DNA from: Candidatus Woesearchaeota archaeon
GTDB taxonomy: Archaea > Nanobdellota > Nanobdellia > SCGC-AAA011-G17 > UBA489
DNA: 64,000 bases
Direction of reading: 5' to 3'
NCBI GenBank assembly: GCA_018302985.1
Contig: JAGVZA010000005.1
Span: forward strand, 10,281 to 74,280
Shown: positions 3,600-57,396 of the stretch, piece after piece
How the letters are laid out: every line of letters begins with the position of its first letter
Position numbering within the stretch: the stretch's first letter is position 1
Position numbers and translations under genes: made by a program
Notes under the pieces: model-generated
Seen by the model: the letters and a program-made list of their open reading frames with translations, nothing else
Told to the model about the DNA's origin: nothing
Databases searched by the model: none

Positions 3600-3738
3600 C
3601 TAAAAACAGGAGTAGCTATTATTTATAAAGAATACTAAGCAATCTGAGAAGTGTAAAAACAGGTATTTTTAGATAAATCATTGTATCTAGCTTGAAGAGA
3701 ATAAAAAACTATTTAAGTGTGAATGATTTAACAAAATC

Positions 3739-12247: not shown

Positions 12248-13480
12248 TTAGAAATCTGTTAATGCTTTTTGTTTTTTGAGTGCTTTGTCTGCTTGATCTA
12301 AAAGAATAGTCCCATATACACCGTCGTAGCCAGGCTGCAATTTAAGGTCTTTTGCTCGATTTTTGAGAATAACTTGGACTACAGCAGGATCAACCACTTG
12401 CGCTAGAGCTGGTTGAGGTGCTTCCAATAAGACATTATATTCAGTGCCAAATTTCCCAATCAATTGTTGATAAAGTGCTGTCAACTTTTTCGAAGTCATC
12501 AATTTAATATTATAGACTGATCCAAGAAGTTCATGCAAAGGAATCAACGAATGAAAAAAAGGAGCATTAGGTTTGACATAACCAACAGGTCGATCTGCTA
12601 ATTGTTCGACTCGATACTCAACACCGATAGTCATTTCTTGTTTGCATTTAGGACATTGTTTGTTTAATTTTCTAGATTCAGCAGGAGCCATCATCACGCC
12701 ACAAGCTCTATGACCATCAAAATGATATTTTCCATATTCCGGAGGAGTTTCAATCGTTCCTTTAATTCCTATGCCAGTGCGTATGGCTTGTAAAATATTT
12801 TTATAAGTTAATTCCTTAAGATCAAAAATAGTCGCTTCTCTCCCAAGTCTCCAAGGATGGGAAGAGTGAGGATCAGAAAAACTTACAATATTGTATTTAT
12901 CTAAACTAGAAATTCTCCAATTCATTGCTCCACTTTCAATTGCATGAATATATTTTGCGCGTTCTTGAAAACATTCTTCGACAGAATCAAAACCAGATTT
13001 GCTCCCAAGTATGCCAAAAAACGATGTCCACGCATGCCCAGGTATCACTTCTATATCTGTGCTAATGCTACGTAACATATCAAGAAATTCAATACTATTC
13101 ATGCCAAAAATAGGTCTGCCATCATAATCAATCCTGCCTTTTTTTAACAATGCATCAATAAATTGTTTGACAACTTCACCATTAGGGAATAAAACTACAT
13201 GATGTATTCTTCTTCCTCTTCCACCTTGGGAATACATTAGACTAATTTCTGTCTGCCAGATAAAAGGAAATTTAGTTTTAGACCAAAGAATACCATTTTC
13301 ATCTTCTGTTAATTTTGAAGTTATTTCCTTATGCCATAAAGGGTGTTGTGCGTCACCAGTACCAAGAATATGTAAACCTTTAATGCATGCATTCCGTTCG
13401 AGATCTTCTAAAGTAGTCTTTTTACTGCAAGCCTGAGCATATCGTCCATGAATATGGAAGTCACCTATTATTTTCATCAA
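12248..13480 (-). CDS. endonuclease Q (EndoQ, PHP-domain deaminated-base endonuclease)
   Basis: DFHIHGRYAQACS, GLHILGTGDAQHPLW, RRIHHVVLFP, SDPHSSHPWRLGREAT, GKYHFDGHRAC, CPKCKQE Zn finger and C-terminal GYDGVYG. Collinear with Pyrococcus EndoQ as I recall it. Confidence 0.88.
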   Translation of the reverse strand: MMKIIGDFHIHGRYAQACSKKTTLEDLERNACIKGLHILGTGDAQHPLWHKEITSKLTEDENGILWSKTKFPFIWQTEISLMYSQGGRGRRIHHVVLFPNGEVVKQFIDALLKKGRIDYDGRPIFGMNSIEFLDMLRSISTDIEVIPGHAWTSFFGILGSKSGFDSVEECFQERAKYIHAIESGAMNWRISSLDKYNIVSFSDPHSSHPWRLGREATIFDLKELTYKNILQAIRTGIGIKGTIETPPEYGKYHFDGHRACGVMMAPAESRKLNKQCPKCKQEMTIGVEYRVEQLADRPVGYVKPNAPFFHSLIPLHELLGSVYNIKLMTSKKLTALYQQLIGKFGTEYNVLLEAPQPALAQVVDPAVVQVILKNRAKDLKLQPGYDGVYGTILLDQADKALKKQKALTDF

Positions 13481-14651
13481 TAGTCACCACATACTGACCG
13501 TAGTCATGATAATCACCAGAGGTATAAGGTTTTATACACTTTATTAAATTACGCTTTCTATACTTAATAATTGTATTACGGCATGAACCTACATCTCGAC
13601 CAGTAATCTTTGCTAAGTCTATACTAGTAAAATATCCTTTCGATTGTTGTATTTTTTGCATAAAATTAAAATAAGTTTTGTCTATGTCTTTTCTACGAAA
13701 CACAGTAAGAATATAAGAATTAAGTATCTGCAGAAGATTATTGGATTTTATTTGAGAACGTAAGGAAAGATTAGCATAGAGTTGTTTGAGTTGTAATTGA
13801 CCTCCGAGCTGTAATCTCCAGTTTCTTCTAGGTTCACCACGTTTTGAAGGGTAAACATTTCTTGGATAAATAGAGCTTAGGAGATTTAATGAAATTAAAA
13901 GATGTTGAATGTCTTTAAGAAGATGGGATTCAGGATATTTTTCCAAACAAGCAGAAGAAATTGAAATATGATATGATGCAGTATTTACTGTACCTTCATC
14001 ATCAATAAATTGAGATAAAAGAGCGTATTTTTGTTCTTGTTGTAATGAAAATATAAAAAGAGGAATATGCGGATTAGTTTCAACTTTCTTACCTGGTTTA
14101 ATGCCTAAAAGAAGAAATATAGAAGAAAGAAATCTAGGAAACGTTACTATTGTTAATAGAGTATTTTTACGTGGACGTTTTTCAGAAAAATAAGGAATAT
14201 TACCTAGTACAGAAGATATATCTAACATAAAACCATTAAAAATATTACTATCAGAATTCATATAATAAGGATTTAGTTTAATGCTAATTCCACCATCTCC
14301 CAAAATTCCAGCTATAACTCTAACTCCGGCACAGGTAGTAAAATCCAAGGGAAATTTAGGATTATAGATACCTCCACCATCTCTGCCTCTAATAAATACT
14401 ATTTTATCTTGATAATCTAATTGAAAATGCTCACAAACTGTCTTCAAGACATCTAATCGAATCAATGAATTTTTACTTAACCAATGACACAATATTCTTT
14501 TACTAATCTGAAGAGTTCTAGCTAATTTATGAATACCGAAAGATCTAATTTGAGAGTCCAATAATTGGAAAAGATTATCTTGAAGTTCAATATATAATTT
14601 ATTCAAAGGCAAATCCTCTAAATATATAATGCCATTGTCTAAAGGAGTCAT
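13461..14651 (-). CDS. free-standing double-motif LAGLIDADG endonuclease-like protein with N- and C-terminal HTH regions
   Basis: Motifs VIAGILGDGGIS and LLSQFIDDEGTV. HTH-like LARTLQISKRILCHW and LAKITGRDVGSCRNTI. 20-nt overlap with endoQ. Confidence 0.7.
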   Translation of the reverse strand: MTPLDNGIIYLEDLPLNKLYIELQDNLFQLLDSQIRSFGIHKLARTLQISKRILCHWLSKNSLIRLDVLKTVCEHFQLDYQDKIVFIRGRDGGGIYNPKFPLDFTTCAGVRVIAGILGDGGISIKLNPYYMNSDSNIFNGFMLDISSVLGNIPYFSEKRPRKNTLLTIVTFPRFLSSIFLLLGIKPGKKVETNPHIPLFIFSLQQEQKYALLSQFIDDEGTVNTASYHISISSACLEKYPESHLLKDIQHLLISLNLLSSIYPRNVYPSKRGEPRRNWRLQLGGQLQLKQLYANLSLRSQIKSNNLLQILNSYILTVFRRKDIDKTYFNFMQKIQQSKGYFTSIDLAKITGRDVGSCRNTIIKYRKRNLIKCIKPYTSGDYHDYGQYVVTIDENNR

Positions 14652-14671
14652 TAGAACAAAAAGATTTAAAG

Positions 14672-14708
14672 TATTTATAAATAATCGGAGGCTCTTTGAG
14701 AAGTAAAC
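14672..14708. promoter_or_regulatory. conserved promoter-associated element, copy A (TATTTATAA-N12-TCTTTGAGAAGTAAAC) upstream of the LAGLIDADG-endoQ operon
   Basis: 31 of 37 positions identical to 32600..32636, including a 16/16 block at identical spacing. The TATA part is about 25 nt from the ATG at 14651. Confidence 0.55.
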
Positions 14709-14735
14709 TACTTTTCTAATCTCTATTTAGAAGTT

Positions 14736-14763
14736 TTCCGGAATTTTCGGAAAGTTTTCGAAA
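14736..14763. promoter_or_regulatory. three TTC-N(2,1,0)-GAA palindromes phased about 10 bp apart
   Basis: TTCCGGAA (14736..14743), TTCGGAA (14746..14752) and TTTCGAAA (14756..14763), in the intergenic region upstream of the LAGLIDADG-endoQ operon. Confidence 0.35.
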
Positions 14764-15063
14764 TCAAGCGCTGCGGCTTAAGCAATAAGTTGTTTGTTTT
14801 CCTTGTCCACTTCTAGATAAAGTATAGTGTGTTAGCCATGCGTCTAATTCTTGACCAAAATCATGCATAGTACGAGCTGGTTGTTCCCATTGACTAACTC
14901 TTGCCAATTGATCTAAGGTTACTGATTGTCCTAAACGTTGGAGTAGAAACTTAAGAACTTTCCCAGTGCCAGCATCTTTCATAACTTCAGGACCATGCTC
15001 TGTTAAACAATAATAAGATCCCTTATCTAGAATACCAGGATATGAAGGTTGTGTTTTTCTCAT
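14764..15063 (-). CDS. small winged-helix-like protein, 99 aa
   Basis: KVLKFLLQRLGQSVTLDQLARVSQ HTH-like segment. Last gene of the envelope operon. Confidence 0.35.
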   Translation of the reverse strand: MRKTQPSYPGILDKGSYYCLTEHGPEVMKDAGTGKVLKFLLQRLGQSVTLDQLARVSQWEQPARTMHDFGQELDAWLTHYTLSRSGQGKQTTYCLSRSA

Positions 15064-15065
15064 AG

Positions 15066-15581
15066 TTAAGTAGCAGAAGAGTTAGGTTTTAATTTAAAAA
15101 AGAGATAGTAAATTATGACTCCATTGACAAGTAGGCGAAGAGCAATAGAAAGATTCATTTCAGAAGGAATAGATGGGTAAAAAATAGTTATAATGCCTAA
15201 AATAGAAAGGATAATAGCTGCTGTTCTTGCCCATGGTTGTGATTTATAAAATCCTCTTCCAATAAAATACGACAAGATTGCTAAGGCTATAAAACCTATA
15301 CGAAATATAATAAATGGATTTAGATTTAATTCTAGAGCATTAATAGTTGTAGAAGATAAAAAGGTTGTAAAAAAAGTTATTAGTAGCTCCATCAAACTTT
15401 GTAGTACAGCATAACCAAATAAAGAACCTCCTATTATAGTGAAATGATAAAAAAGAAATGAACCTCCAATAGAACCGAAAATAATATTAGGAGAAAAAAA
15501 GAATGAGTAAATAAAACAAAAAGCTGCACCTATATAATAATAAAGAGATAAAAAACGTAATCCTTTTAATATTTGTTTCAT
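15066..15581 (-). CDS. polytopic membrane protein, 171 aa
   Basis: About 5 hydrophobic helices. 2-nt gaps to both neighbouring genes. Confidence 0.5.
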   Translation of the reverse strand: MKQILKGLRFLSLYYYIGAAFCFIYSFFFSPNIIFGSIGGSFLFYHFTIIGGSLFGYAVLQSLMELLITFFTTFLSSTTINALELNLNPFIIFRIGFIALAILSYFIGRGFYKSQPWARTAAIILSILGIITIFYPSIPSEMNLSIALRLLVNGVIIYYLFFKLKPNSSAT

Positions 15582-31208: not shown

Positions 31209-32267
31209 CTACTCCTCCACGTCTTCAAGTCCAGCATCAGTAATTCTAAAGATGCATTCAGCGTCAGCCAAGTACGGACTGTCCACAAGTTTTCCAACAC
31301 GTGTTCCTTTCTTGCCTTTGCGGAGATAAATTCTAGTCTGGGAATTATGCCCAACTATATGACCTCCAATAGCTGCAGTAGGATCACCGAAAAAAGTATC
31401 TGGCTTTGCCATGACTTGATTGGTGACATAGACACATAAATTATATTGGCTTGCTAGTTTCATCAGCGTGTGCATATGCTTGTTTAATTTCTGTTGTCTG
31501 TCTGCTAATTGTCCTCGACCAACAAAATCTGCTCTAAAGTGAGACGTTAGTGAGTCAACAACGATCAAGCGAACAGGTCTATCACTTGCCATTTTCTGTT
31601 TGATCAAATCTTCAGTTTTTTCTGCAATCAACATTTGATGATCGCTGTTAAAAGCTCGTGCTACAGCAATATTTTTGAGAGTTTCTATAGGATCTATTTT
31701 CAAGGATTCGGCAATTTGCTTAATTCTTTCAGGTCTGAACGTGCTTTCTCCATCGATAAAGATTACAGATCCATTGGATCCTCCTTGTTCTACAGGTAAT
31801 TGAGTTCGTACTGCTAAGACATGAGCTATCTGTGACTTGCTTGATCCAAATTCTCCGTAAGCCTCGCTAATCGCTCCAGTTTCAAAGCCACCACCAATCA
31901 TAGCGTCAAAAGCTTTGCTGCCTGTGCTTAAGCGTATAACTTCTTGTCTTCGTTTCAACAAGTCTATACCAGTTTCAAAACCCATGTCAAGTTTGCTTCT
32001 TGCTACATTAATGATACGTTTGGCGACAGATTCTCCAATAGCACAAACTTCAACTAACTCAGCAGGACTAGCAACTGCTAGACTCATTAAAGTATCAAAT
32101 CCAGCTTCTCTGAGCTTTTCAGCTGTAGCTGCTCCAACACCTGGTAGAGTATCAATACTTTGTGGCTCTGATTTAGTGGAGGTTTCCTGTTTAGTTTCCT
32201 TAGGTTTTTCTACCATGACAACTTCTTGCTGCATTCCTAGTACTTTAAGTTTACTCATTTGCATCAT
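31209..32267 (-). CDS. radA: DNA repair and recombination protein RadA
   Basis: HhH LPGVGAATAEKLREAGF, Walker A GEFGSSKSQ, Walker B LIVVDS and TNQV. Confidence 0.95.
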   Translation of the reverse strand: MMQMSKLKVLGMQQEVVMVEKPKETKQETSTKSEPQSIDTLPGVGAATAEKLREAGFDTLMSLAVASPAELVEVCAIGESVAKRIINVARSKLDMGFETGIDLLKRRQEVIRLSTGSKAFDAMIGGGFETGAISEAYGEFGSSKSQIAHVLAVRTQLPVEQGGSNGSVIFIDGESTFRPERIKQIAESLKIDPIETLKNIAVARAFNSDHQMLIAEKTEDLIKQKMASDRPVRLIVVDSLTSHFRADFVGRGQLADRQQKLNKHMHTLMKLASQYNLCVYVTNQVMAKPDTFFGDPTAAIGGHIVGHNSQTRIYLRKGKKGTRVGKLVDSPYLADAECIFRITDAGLEDVEE

Positions 32268-32526
32268 CTCCTTTGCTCTGCATATTTAGAAAAAGGTCTT
32301 CCTGTAGTTTTTGAACAATAAGGTGTATTTTAGGAAGATCACTGCGTCTAAGATTTAATTTCTCTTCTCTCCAGACATCTTGTCCCTTGTCTTTCCAAGC
32401 ACGACGTAAAGTAACAGTTTTGAACTCTATTTCTGTGCCATCCTCTTGTTTTCGCTTATTAGCCCATATGACGCCTTCTATAGCGCCAGATCTAAATTTT
32501 TTCACTGGTAGATGATTGCTAACCAT
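32251..32526 (-). CDS. small protein, possibly a PC4/YdbC-like ssDNA-binding fold, 91 aa
   Basis: FRSGAIEGVIWANKRKQEDGTEIEFKTVTLRRAWKDKGQDVWREEKLNLRRSDLPKI resembles the PC4-like beta-sheet pattern. AAGGAGTGA Shine-Dalgarno-like sequence upstream. 17-nt overlap with radA. Confidence 0.35.
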   Translation of the reverse strand: MVSNHLPVKKFRSGAIEGVIWANKRKQEDGTEIEFKTVTLRRAWKDKGQDVWREEKLNLRRSDLPKIHLIVQKLQEDLFLNMQSKGDDANE

Positions 32527-32599
32527 GTGACATCACTCCTTTGTTGCTTTCGCATTTTGTTTCAGTGTCCATGAAGGACAAAGCTAAGAAAGAGAAATC

Positions 32600-32636
32600 T
32601 ATTTATAAGCAAAAGGGGGGTCTTTGAGAAGTAAAC
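32600..32636. promoter_or_regulatory. conserved promoter-associated element, copy B, upstream of the PC4-like-radA operon
   Basis: Same element as 14672..14708. It lies in the intergenic region 74-110 nt upstream of the ATG at 32526. Confidence 0.55.
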
Positions 32637-32660
32637 AGATACTAGAGAATATAGGTCGGG

Positions 32661-40043: not shown

Positions 40044-40176
40044 GGATGAATCTCCCGATTGCTAGAAAAATAAGAACACCTATAAGTATGGTCAATAAGA
40101 TATATACCAGCTCTTTTTCCATAAGAACAAAAGAAGTTAGCTTATTTATAAAGATTGAGGAAATAAACTTAAATCA

Positions 40177-53280: not shown

Positions 53281-53320
53281 AATTTCCAGCTAGAAGTAAA
53301 CCTATTTAAAACTTAGCACC

Positions 53321-54835
53321 ATGATAGAAATTAGAAACTTCTCCCCGCGAGAATATCAAAAAAATATCCTCGAAACCTGTAAAAAGAAGAATACTTTAGT
53401 ATGCCTGCCAACAGGAACTGGAAAGACAAAAGCAGCCATTTTGCTCGCTGTAGATCGTTTAAACAAACATGCTTTTTCTAAGGTAGTAATCTGCTCTCCG
53501 ACAAAACCCTTAGCCAGTCAAATTTGTAAGGAGTTTAAAGAGTGTACTAATATCAACCCAGAAGAAATTAATCTATTGACTGGGCAGGTAAATCCAGAAC
53601 TCAGAGCCAAGATATGGAATGACTCACAAATCATCGTTGCTACTCCACAAACTATAGAAAGTGATCTGGAAAAGAAAAGAATATCTTTAGAAAATGTTTC
53701 TTTATTATGTATTGATGAGTGCCATCGTTCCAAAGAAAACTTCGCAAACACCACTGTAGCAAAAATCTATAATGAAACAGCGAAAAACGCAAGAATTTTA
53801 GGTTTAACTGCTTCACCAGGATCATCTAGAGAAATCATTGATCTAGTCTGTCAAAATTTATTTATTGAATCAGTTGAAGTAAGAACACAAGAAGATGAGG
53901 ATATTAAAGAATATATTCAGGAAAAAGATATGCAGTATATCAAAGTGGATTTGCCAGAAGAAATAAATGAGATTCGTAATCTCTTAACTCCAGTCTATCT
54001 CTCAAAAGTAGGAGAACTCAAAAAATTTGGAATGACTAAGCCCACAGGAATAATTAACAAAAAAGATTTGCTCATGATGCAGAGACAGTTGCTGCAAGAC
54101 ATTCGTCACGGCAATCCAGCAGCTTACAGTGGCATTTCTATGGTTACTCAAGCTATCAAGCTAAGTTATCTTATTGAATTAGTAGAAACACAAAGTCTGG
54201 CAGCAGCAAAAGAATACTTAGTTAAGTTAGAAGAAGAAACAAGTAAAGCAGCCACATTCTTAAGAAATCAAAAACAAGTCATAGAAGCTAAGAAAAAAAT
54301 TCTTGAAGCAGTTGAGAAACAAGTCAAGCATCCAAAATTACTGAAATTAATGGAAATCTTGCAGGAAGAAGTAAAAAATCCTGATGCAAGAGTCATCGTC
54401 TTTGCAAATTTAAGAACTATTGTAGATGAAATAGTTGCAGAGCTTACTAAAATAAACATCAAGGCAAAAAAATTCGTAGGACAGTCAGATAAAAAGAATA
54501 AAGGATTAAAACAAAAAGAACAAATAGAAACCATCGAGCAGTTCAAAGACAAAGAATTCAAAGTCTTGGTTGCCTCTTCAGTCGGTGAAGAAGGTCTAGA
54601 CATCCCAGAAGTCAATGCTGTAATATTTTATGAGCCTGTCGCAAGTGAGTTAAGACGTGTCCAGCGTTCAGGTCGTACTGGAAGAACAATGCCAGGGAGA
54701 ATTATTTATTTAATTACAAAAAAAACAAGAGATGAAGCTTATCATTGGGTAGCGCAGAAAAAAGAAATCAAGATGCAGAATATTTTGCAGAGCATGAAAA
54801 GGAAACAAGAGCAGCAAACAACACTAGACAAATGA
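53321..54835 (+). CDS. hef: Hef/FANCM-type SF2 helicase (helicase half only)
   Basis: CLPTGTGKT (motif I), IDECHR (motif II), LTASPG (motif III), VGEEGLDIPEVN (motif V) and QRSGRTGR (motif VI). Confidence 0.85.
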   Translation: MIEIRNFSPREYQKNILETCKKKNTLVCLPTGTGKTKAAILLAVDRLNKHAFSKVVICSPTKPLASQICKEFKECTNINPEEINLLTGQVNPELRAKIWNDSQIIVATPQTIESDLEKKRISLENVSLLCIDECHRSKENFANTTVAKIYNETAKNARILGLTASPGSSREIIDLVCQNLFIESVEVRTQEDEDIKEYIQEKDMQYIKVDLPEEINEIRNLLTPVYLSKVGELKKFGMTKPTGIINKKDLLMMQRQLLQDIRHGNPAAYSGISMVTQAIKLSYLIELVETQSLAAAKEYLVKLEEETSKAATFLRNQKQVIEAKKKILEAVEKQVKHPKLLKLMEILQEEVKNPDARVIVFANLRTIVDEIVAELTKINIKAKKFVGQSDKKNKGLKQKEQIETIEQFKDKEFKVLVASSVGEEGLDIPEVNAVIFYEPVASELRRVQRSGRTGRTMPGRIIYLITKKTRDEAYHWVAQKKEIKMQNILQSMKRKQEQQTTLDK

Positions 54836-57217: not shown

Positions 57218-57396
57218 TTCTGCAAGAACAACATTGCATCCTTTGCACATCAAAAAGCGAAATCTTCCTATGTTAGCCTCGAAAGCAACAATAGAATTAC
57301 ACTTAGAACATTTGTTTGCTGGTGTCGTCACTGAAAATCATCTCTTTGTAACAACTCGAGTCAAAAATTTATTTATAAAGATTGCGAAAGAAGAAG

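Follow-up and report, generated by a model that had tools for sequence, protein, structure and literature searches.

Why should the promoter of a LAGLIDADG gene lying in front of endoQ carry the same sequence as the promoter of a radA recombinase operon? The question is raised by a 64,000-nucleotide stretch of contig JAGVZA010000005.1 from a Candidatus Woesearchaeota archaeon (hereafter the window, meaning the whole stretch analysed), in which a 37-nt element stands at both places. The window has a G+C content of ~35%, and its closest proteins come from Candidatus Woesearchaeota and Nanoarchaeia (DPANN) assemblies. We find the element to be a promoter module of one DPANN clade, conserved, present in multiple copies and locked in position. 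Its core is probably a transcription-factor site that co-regulates a small regulon in one Woesearchaeota/Nanoarchaeia clade, with radA as a stable member.

A position-locked promoter module in related genomes

The two copies, TATTTATAAATAATCGGAGGCTCTTTGAGAAGTAAAC at 14672–14708 and TATTTATAAGCAAAAGGGGGGTCTTTGAGAAGTAAAC at 32600–32636, align without gaps with 31 of 37 positions identical, and both are intergenic and located 5′ of minus-strand genes. They share an uninterrupted 16-nt block (TCTTTGAGAAGTAAAC; 14693–14708 and 32621–32636) as well as TATTTATAA. The first-pass annotation had reported this pair, and its identities, coordinates and intergenic setting proved exact. It is the top gapless 37-nt pair of the whole window on either strand; in 30 dinucleotide shuffles, the best pairs had 27–30 identities and none reached 31. 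A chance likeness of two AT-rich promoters would nevertheless agree with the 13 exact 16-mer repeat pairs present in the window, which make such a repeat not unusual here, and with the occurrence of the 16-mer at up to three mismatches (3 matches versus 2.4 expected, the chance level). Because these 16-mer counts are at chance level, the argument from within the window is weak when taken alone. The decisive evidence is the recurrence of the element in related genomes and at orthologous radA promoters: the box is found in ~40 loci with identical geometry and is kept at orthologues, and chance, already refuted, has a negligible probability.

Recurrence was assessed with two scans. A search for the exact 16-mer covered one genome per GTDB species and selected on the 16-mer, not on a TATA box. 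It returned at least 114 loci, and among the matches listed most are single chance matches in unrelated bacteria. Three of those listed lie in the Woesearchaeota metagenome-assembled genome JAUXTV01, two in the Nanoarchaeia metagenome-assembled genome DATDXZ01 and one in another Woesearchaeota metagenome-assembled genome. All six of these Woesearchaeota/Nanoarchaeia loci have TTTATAWA at −19 to −12 and a leftward ATG ~20 nt beyond, and the remaining loci among the matches listed lack this TATA/ATG layout. A metagenome scan that required the TATA box together with a slightly relaxed 16-mer gave 49 loci, or ~40 distinct copies after removal of unrelated sequences (individual contigs and loci are cited below by L number). 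Eight of the excluded contigs (L122, L128, L133, L142, L149, L153, L159 and L162) carry TTCTTGAGAAGTAAAT followed by tacccatg, which fits the search pattern in an unrelated family; they share a conserved stretch, TTATAAAAAAGGCTTGCTTTCTTGAGAAGTAAATTACCCATG. Five further pattern matches were unrelated sequences and were excluded as well.

The layout common to the copies consists of the ATG of the leftward gene, ~20 nt, TTTATAWA, an 11-nt spacer ending in a G-rich GRGGS box, TCTTTGAGAAGTAAAC, a conserved AT-rich block and often a phased CGGAAA/TTTCCG array. Scored with a profile built from these copies, true modules reach 35–59 bits and stand clear of chance 16-mers, which reach no more than 25.7 bits. 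Conservation extends to positions outside the search pattern, both in the GRGGS box (G at −5 in 31/40 copies, at −3 in 36/40 and at −2 in 31/40; G or C at −1 in 40/40) and at +17 to +37, where a ~22-nt block reads (T/A)RNTAYT...AA.ATATAT. Five copies found without demanding the exact 16-mer (three radA orthologues including L115 and L121; L126:5225; L043:1757) keep TGAGAAGT and the TATA register. One of them is exact, three have 2–3 mismatches and one has an 8-nt tandem duplication inside the box. Since copies found in this way carry mismatches, the family is moderately degenerate and larger than the retrieved set.

Several copies occur per genome in the same TATA register: two in the 64-kb window, three in JAUXTV01, two in DATDXZ01 and at least five on one 240-kb contig, where the members include radA, Bro-N, two LAGLIDADG genes and a 66-aa gene. 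This amounts to approximately one such promoter per 25–60 kb. The ~40 distinct copies at promoters of related genomes are what a small-regulon operator or activator site would be expected to show, and the recurrence of the same spacing bears out the earlier view that the element is non-random and fixed in its distance upstream of a TATA box.

In the window itself, the profile (nhmmer) finds only two copies, at 14672–14739 (52.9 bits) and at the radA promoter (49.0 bits), and no third match. Two further sites that had been proposed as members are not supported. The degenerate copy at 3620–3660 (minus strand) places TGAGAAGT in the proper register relative to an ORFan gene's TATA box; its score of −12.8 is the third-best in the window and lies inside the maxima of shuffled sequences (−15 to +10.6), so we did not count it as a member. 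Its gene has no homologues outside its own cluster and hence no orthologous promoter for comparison. The 10-mer at hef (53292–53301; Hef helicase part at 53321–54835) is oriented opposite to its gene, abuts the TATA box at the wrong spacing and has no profile match. Two other repeats in the window, TTATTTATAAAGATTG at 40141–40157 and 57368–57384, and CAT-N20-TATTTATAAA common to the promoters at 14648–14685 and 40119–40156, reflect the genome's common leaderless TATA-to-ATG layout and not the 16-mer box.

The copy in front of the LAGLIDADG gene (copy 1, minus strand) illustrates the architecture. Its TATA box (TTTATAAA, 14674–14681) has its edge 22 nt from the ATG at 14651, a leaderless spacing. 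The 11-nt spacer (14682–14692) ends in the G-rich box GAGGC (14688–14692); many other copies carry a small CTC-N-GAG palindrome in this spacer. The 16-mer (14693–14708) reads GTTTACTTCTCAAAGA in gene orientation and lies at about −41 to −56 from the ATG, the presumed transcription start of the leaderless gene. It is followed by a proximal block at 14709–14734 of the class A type described below, TACTTTTCTAATCTCTATTT plus AGAAGT, which includes a TACT motif as well as an AT-rich box and, at a distance of 29 nt from the first AGAAGT, a second one. Beyond it, a phased array, TTTCCGGAATTTTCGGAAAGTTTTCGAAA (14735–14763), has CG steps at 14739/40, 14748/49 and 14759/60 (spacings of 9 and 11), with A-tracts and T-tracts between the steps, and abuts the stop codon of a 99-aa open reading frame (ORF).

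In most copies, the ATG lies 19–21 nt beyond the TATA flank, with the end of TTTATAWA 21–23 nt before the ATG, and this leaderless spacing is also the commonest among the window's promoters. An archaeal TATA box usually lies ~26 nt upstream of the transcription start, and the observed spacing fits leaderless transcripts; three gene families have instead a longer 5′ leader with a Shine-Dalgarno sequence. This position shows the TATA box to be an ordinary promoter for the leftward gene. With the start taken at the ATG, the 16-mer occupies about −41 to −56 and GRGGS about −36 to −40, just upstream of the position of the B recognition element (BRE).

Upstream of the 16-mer, the copies come in three flavours. 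Class A has TRCTTTT, an AT-rich stretch, the second AGAAGT 29 nt from the first, and the array; class B has AGATACTAGAG, AACTAAAAATTTAAAAAGCG and the array; class C, which includes the radA copy, has AGATACTAGA and ATATATATT without an array. The proximal block of class A is kept in 14 class-A copies on different contigs. In 23 class A/B copies, the CG steps of the arrays alternate at 9 and 11 bp (18 spacings of 9 and 27 of 11), with A-tracts and then T-tracts between them. Such phasing is the classic pattern of intrinsically curved or histone-positioning DNA. Phased A-tract DNA was reportedly described as intrinsically curved by Hagerman in 1986, and other work is said to concern histone positioning in archaea. 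In its sequence pattern, the CG-GAAA(N)TTTC-CG array with its 9/11-bp steps resembles phased (GAAAATTTTC)n DNA, but it is an optional part of the module and is absent at radA.

The same architecture could be read in the opposite direction, with the palindromic TATA box (TTTATAAA) also firing rightward and the 16-mer marking the start region of a short divergent noncoding RNA, terminated at the array's T-runs, which would be the conserved functional unit. The usual distance from TATA box to start would place a rightward start at about position 11–12 of the 16-mer, TTTT occurs three times within 30–70 nt on the plus strand, and a second AT-rich box is placed symmetrically across the 16-mer. However, what lies downstream of the 16-mer varies among classes A, B and C; at radA, there is no array and the neighbouring stop codon comes after just 24 nt; and the fixed leaderless distance to the leftward ATG ties the TATA box to that gene. 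A joint fold of the 14 class-A copies (RNAalifold) gave a consensus of −0.74 kcal/mol with no compensatory pairs, and Rfam returned no family match, only sub-threshold noise. The weak fold, the lack of compensatory pairs and the lack of an Rfam family give no support to a structured noncoding RNA. A divergent small RNA is unlikely, in our estimate strongly so, and the element appears to act at the DNA level, not at the RNA level.

The radA operon and the endoQ locus

The second copy of the 16-mer (32621–32636, minus strand; 49.0 bits with nhmmer) lies in the promoter of an operon (31209–32526, minus strand) consisting of a gene for a small β-β-β-β-α protein of 91 aa (32251–32526) and radA (31209–32267; Rad51 Pfam, 1.9e-90). 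Its TATA box (TTTATAAG, 32602–32609) and an 11-nt spacer ending in GGGGG occupy 32602–32620. The proximal upstream block, of class C/B (AGATACTAGAGAATATAGG, 32637–32660), extends up to the stop codon of a 137-aa gene, with no phased array. The synteny of the operon is kept in L115–L121, and the box is retained in four lineages, among which the small upstream protein is 78–86% identical.

Across these four lineages, 13 of the 16 columns of the 16-mer are invariant, along with 6/8 columns of the TATA box and 12/18 of the block upstream of the 16-mer. The spacer between TATA box and 16-mer has 0/12 invariant columns, the interval between the TATA box and a conserved leader 2/19, and the far upstream region 4/29. 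With 13/16 in the 16-mer versus 0–14% in the flanking spacers, the radA promoter is a clear phylogenetic footprint. The comparison of orthologous promoters that had been proposed for this element thus ends in conservation at the radA operon, where the module, as judged from the alignment, is under selection.

The radA loci show three further peculiarities. In L115, L116 and L117, 5′ of a 90-aa gene (~9880–9905 in L115), an 8-nt tandem duplication inside the 16-mer (GTTTACTTCTTCACTTCTCAAAGA) doubles the GAAGT unit and leaves the TATA-proximal half in register. The 5′ leader of the window's operon (32527–32580, minus strand) contains a near-invariant block of ~40 nt, TTTGTCC-TNNNGGACACTGAAACAAAATGCGA-AAGCAAC, in which 32 of 37 columns are invariant across the four lineages (window, L115, L118 and L121; 5′ of the 90-aa gene in relatives). 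The block opens with a GTCC...GGAC hairpin of variable loop. Its conservation exceeds that of the intergenic DNA around it, and it is possibly a leader RNA element. In one relative, RadA measures 843–851 aa and includes an intein bearing a LAGLIDADG domain (L118, 10242–12797; L119, 6371–8902), so that in this lineage radA hosts a homing endonuclease and also shares its promoter box with free-standing ones.

The 91-aa protein had been labelled PC4-like. It has no sequence match in Pfam, NCBIfam or the PDB, and its structure model (predicted local distance difference test score, 82.5) has four strands and a C-terminal helix. The best Foldseek hits, Pur-alpha (E = 0.058) and the T5 PC4 homologue (E = 0.36), are, like all others, above E = 0.05. 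The topology is thus compatible with a PC4/Pur-alpha/Whirly-type fold, and the specific label finds no significant match.

The endoQ locus has a different history. The gene driven by copy 1 (13461–14651, minus strand) encodes a free-standing LAGLIDADG protein of 396 aa with an HTH-like (helix-turn-helix) N-terminal part. Its match to Pfam LAGLIDADG_3 (E = 0.0015) is below the family cutoff, the acidic residues of both LAGLIDADG motifs are present as read from the sequence, and it is 32% identical to the element-adjacent LAGLIDADG gene of L101/L161. This gene, the promoter module, the 99-aa ORF and a 171-aa ORF form an insertion of ~2.1 kb (~13478–15581, minus strand), which by junction alignment takes the place of a ~30-nt spacer between a 314-aa gene and endoQ (12248–13480, minus strand; TIGR00375, 1.9e-45; homologues named endonuclease Q). 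No target-site duplication is evident at the insertion junctions.

The insertion is missing in five relatives (L171–L175; EndoQ 70–90% identical), where endoQ follows the 314-aa gene after ~30–50 nt or has its own plain promoter. Gene orders and profile scans of these five orthologous loci revealed neither a LAGLIDADG gene nor the element in any of them (5/5). Because the insertion brought the module together with the LAGLIDADG gene, the module belongs to that gene. Standing behind a mobile gene that was inserted recently, endoQ is a passenger and not an ancestral regulon member. The five loci rule out endoQ as a regulon member, and the element previously assigned to an endoQ promoter is seen to have arrived with the ~2.1-kb insertion. 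This corrects an inference made at the level of annotation, since endoQ is not co-regulated with radA here.

Genes under the module and its mobility

The ~40 copies drive a limited set of genes. Free-standing LAGLIDADG proteins are the largest class (13/40); they are divergent (154–463 aa), keep the acidic residues of both motifs and mostly have an HTH-like N-terminus, as read from their sequences. An acidic 64–67-aa protein follows (8/40), then the small gene plus radA operon (4/40), Bro-N proteins of ~280 aa (4/40), a 78-aa protein (3/40), a 38-aa protein (3/40), a DinD equivalog (2/40; 351.6 bits versus a cutoff of 242) and other or truncated genes (3/40). As for local candidate regulators, none of the 78-aa, 66-aa, 38-aa, Bro-N and DinD proteins has a homologue in the window.

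Two of the small gene families have recognizable neighbourhoods. Copies for the acidic 64–67-aa protein in L148, L154, L155 and L130 lie directly downstream of a gene of 297–355 aa ending in ...YGMKTLQDFT, which has a GxPGxGKT motif and by eye looks like an Orc1/Cdc6-type ATPase. To the left of the element in L126, L143 and L151, three different contigs, the 38-aa ORF (MALKVFRLHREKGPDYPLAKVIGEDFIILGKEELL...) comes with a conserved Shine-Dalgarno leader and is followed by a G/C hairpin, GGGGGTTGCTCTTCCCC. An exact 18-nt direct repeat elsewhere in the window, AAAAATCCTTTTTTCTCT (1369–1386 and 1495–1512, 126 nt apart), lies within a 442-aa ORF (501–1829).

A locus linked to Tag (DNA-3-methyladenine glycosylase I) combines these parts in different ways. 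Its upstream part is of class B in L085 and L132 and of class A in L137; the driven gene is DinD in L085 and L137 and Bro-N in L132. These combinations indicate that copies recombine with one another or that cassettes are exchanged at the box.

Together with the insertion in front of endoQ, such exchanges raise the possibility that the element is a portable promoter of selfish cassettes (LAGLIDADG, Bro-N, DinD-like), alike through recent spread and gene conversion, of which the radA operon acquired one copy. The window's own LAGLIDADG copy came with the 2.1-kb insertion and is absent in a relative whose EndoQ is 90% identical, 13 of the 40 copies drive LAGLIDADG genes and several others Bro-N or DinD, and the Tag-linked locus swapped both its class A/B part and its driven gene. 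Judging by these loci, the module does travel with mobile nuclease genes. As an account of the element's sequence, however, portability meets several difficulties. The LAGLIDADG proteins are very divergent (window versus L101, 32% identity), yet the 16-mer and its flanking blocks are near-identical, and near-identical DNA beside divergent proteins requires selection on the DNA. The radA box is kept at orthologous positions in four lineages amid neighbouring spacers of 0–14% invariance. Among the 2.9 million viral contigs of IMG/VR, there was no full-pattern match, and seven loose matches scored at most 15.8 bits, as by chance, which also counts against a viral or proviral promoter. We therefore regard a portable promoter as improbable; it overlaps in part with our preferred reading, a co-regulated transcription-factor site, and a conserved box at −41 to −56 would still need a reason.

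The abundance of LAGLIDADG genes beside the box suggests another reading, in which the 21–22-bp block (GRGGS plus 16-mer) is recognized by the LAGLIDADG proteins themselves, either as a target for homing or cleavage or, in the manner of bacterial WhiA, as an operator through which domesticated LAGLIDADG-HTH factors regulate themselves. The block has the typical length of a LAGLIDADG target, LAGLIDADG genes are the largest class beside it, and most encode an HTH-like N-terminal segment. There is also a precedent in WhiA (PMC3240954), a transcription factor of bacteria that derives from a LAGLIDADG protein and reportedly binds the promoter of its own gene. Like WhiA, the proteins considered here combine LAGLIDADG and HTH parts beside a conserved promoter site, so autoregulation would be possible. 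WhiA, however, is a single conserved orthologue that has lost its catalytic residues, whereas the proteins beside the box form a large set of divergent paralogues in which both motifs still have their acidic residues. Unrelated genes use the box as well.

Several observations count against recognition by these proteins. One shared 22-bp specificity is unlikely among such divergent paralogues, many copies drive non-LAGLIDADG genes, and an active enzyme that cut ~20 promoter copies of its own genome, radA included, would be lethal. Since the empty site in relatives (L175, L171) has no box, the box is not the insertion target. We consider a LAGLIDADG recognition site very improbable.

A candidate regulon and its precedents

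The preferred reading remains that of a transcription-factor site at the core of the module. In gene orientation, the module consists of an optional phased CGGAAA/TTTCCG array with an AT-rich block, GTTTACTTCTCAAAGA, the C-rich box SCCYC in the 11-nt spacer, TWTATAAA, ~20 nt and the ATG. The 16-mer and the adjacent box (about −36 to −56) would form the site of a sequence-specific transcription factor, just upstream of the BRE. Because of this position, the predicted factor is more likely an activator or recruiter than a repressor.

The closest precedent, by analogy of position, would be the ultraviolet-inducible promoters of Sulfolobus, in which the motif 5′-A(N)TTTC-3′ at −39 to −44 from the transcription start, upstream of the BRE, is essential (PMC5817253). 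The two cis elements are alike in lacking palindromic symmetry and in lying a short way upstream of BRE/TATA (−39 to −44 versus about −36 to −56 in the module), and both are common to promoters linked to DNA transfer or recombination. Promoter activity in Sulfolobus depends on its motif, which therefore probably operates through an activator. Later work reportedly tied that motif to Orc1-2-dependent activation of the DNA-damage response. The two sequences are unrelated, as the −56 to −36 region of the module (GTTTACTTCTCAAAGA plus SCCYC) contains no A(N)TTTC. The Sulfolobus motif has 6 nt and belongs to Thermoproteota, whereas the module box has 16–21 nt and belongs to DPANN, is known from sequence and has a membership dominated by homing-endonuclease-type genes.

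Archaeal activators with upstream activating sites include Ptr2 of Methanocaldococcus jannaschii and TFB-RF1 of Pyrococcus furiosus. Their sites, like the module box, adjoin BRE/TATA on its upstream side in a constant helical register, a placement that fits recruitment of TBP/TFB. They differ in being shorter, degenerate and often dyad-symmetric, with known factors, whereas the module site is asymmetric. In gene content, the module resembles the bacterial SOS regulon, where a LexA box stands at recA, dinD and prophage or mobile genes: in both, a RecA-family recombinase, DinD or its equivalog, Bro-N or antirepressor-like proteins and selfish elements come under one operator. This likeness concerns the genes. 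The module has neither LexA nor a palindromic SOS box, belongs to an archaeal TATA/TFB promoter and places its box upstream of the TATA box, an activator-like position, not over the core promoter.

It had been suggested that the element marks a DNA-damage or repair regulon. A link to DNA transactions is plausible, given radA, the DinD equivalog, Bro-N and LAGLIDADG, but most members are mobile or selfish genes and not canonical repair genes.

A number of observations weigh against a repair-centred regulon read by a dedicated factor. The box is missing from nearby canonical repair genes, namely hef, the ancestral endoQ and the RPA-like gene that immediately precedes the radA operon; for this reason, the DNA-damage label draws on radA and DinD plus inference. 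No candidate DNA-binding regulator co-occurs with the element in the loci fetched. The local winged-helix and HTH proteins that had been put forward as binders show no association with the element elsewhere, and the 99-aa protein of the window, used as a tblastn query, has no homologue in any other element-bearing locus. Most sites of archaeal factors are shorter and less rigid than this nearly invariant, non-palindromic block of 16–21 nt. The search patterns behind most copies demanded the 16-mer, which inflates its apparent invariance. Finally, the upstream part at the Tag-DinD locus was swapped between classes A and B (L085 versus L137), and recombination or gene conversion can also maintain identity.

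With these points in mind, we propose that the radA operon would be the stable core of the regulon, joined by the DinD equivalog, Bro-N, several small proteins and, above all, free-standing LAGLIDADG genes. The mobile genes carry the module along, and in this way a copy reached its place upstream of endoQ in the window. Homing-endonuclease genes plugged into the regulon would be expressed when the recombinase is. With less confidence, the regulon may answer DNA damage or recombination demand. A more specific version is an SOS-like recombination or DNA-damage regulon, in which the factor would read the asymmetric ~21-nt box (−36 to −56), the radA operon and DinD would be the cellular core, and the LAGLIDADG genes would have captured the module; we advance it tentatively and hold it to be doubtful.

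The literature searched contains no description of the motif or of DPANN promoter regulons, which suggests that the module defines a regulon new to that literature. To our knowledge, almost nothing is known of transcriptional regulation in DPANN, and none of these organisms is in pure culture. Because the module can be searched for by sequence, it is a direct handle on the first specific regulator to be found among these archaea. With it one can also ask whether such reduced genomes mount a damage or recombination response built around radA, and how free-standing homing-endonuclease genes come to be expressed. If the proposed regulon is true, DNA cutting by selfish LAGLIDADG genes would be timed to the induction of the host recombinase.

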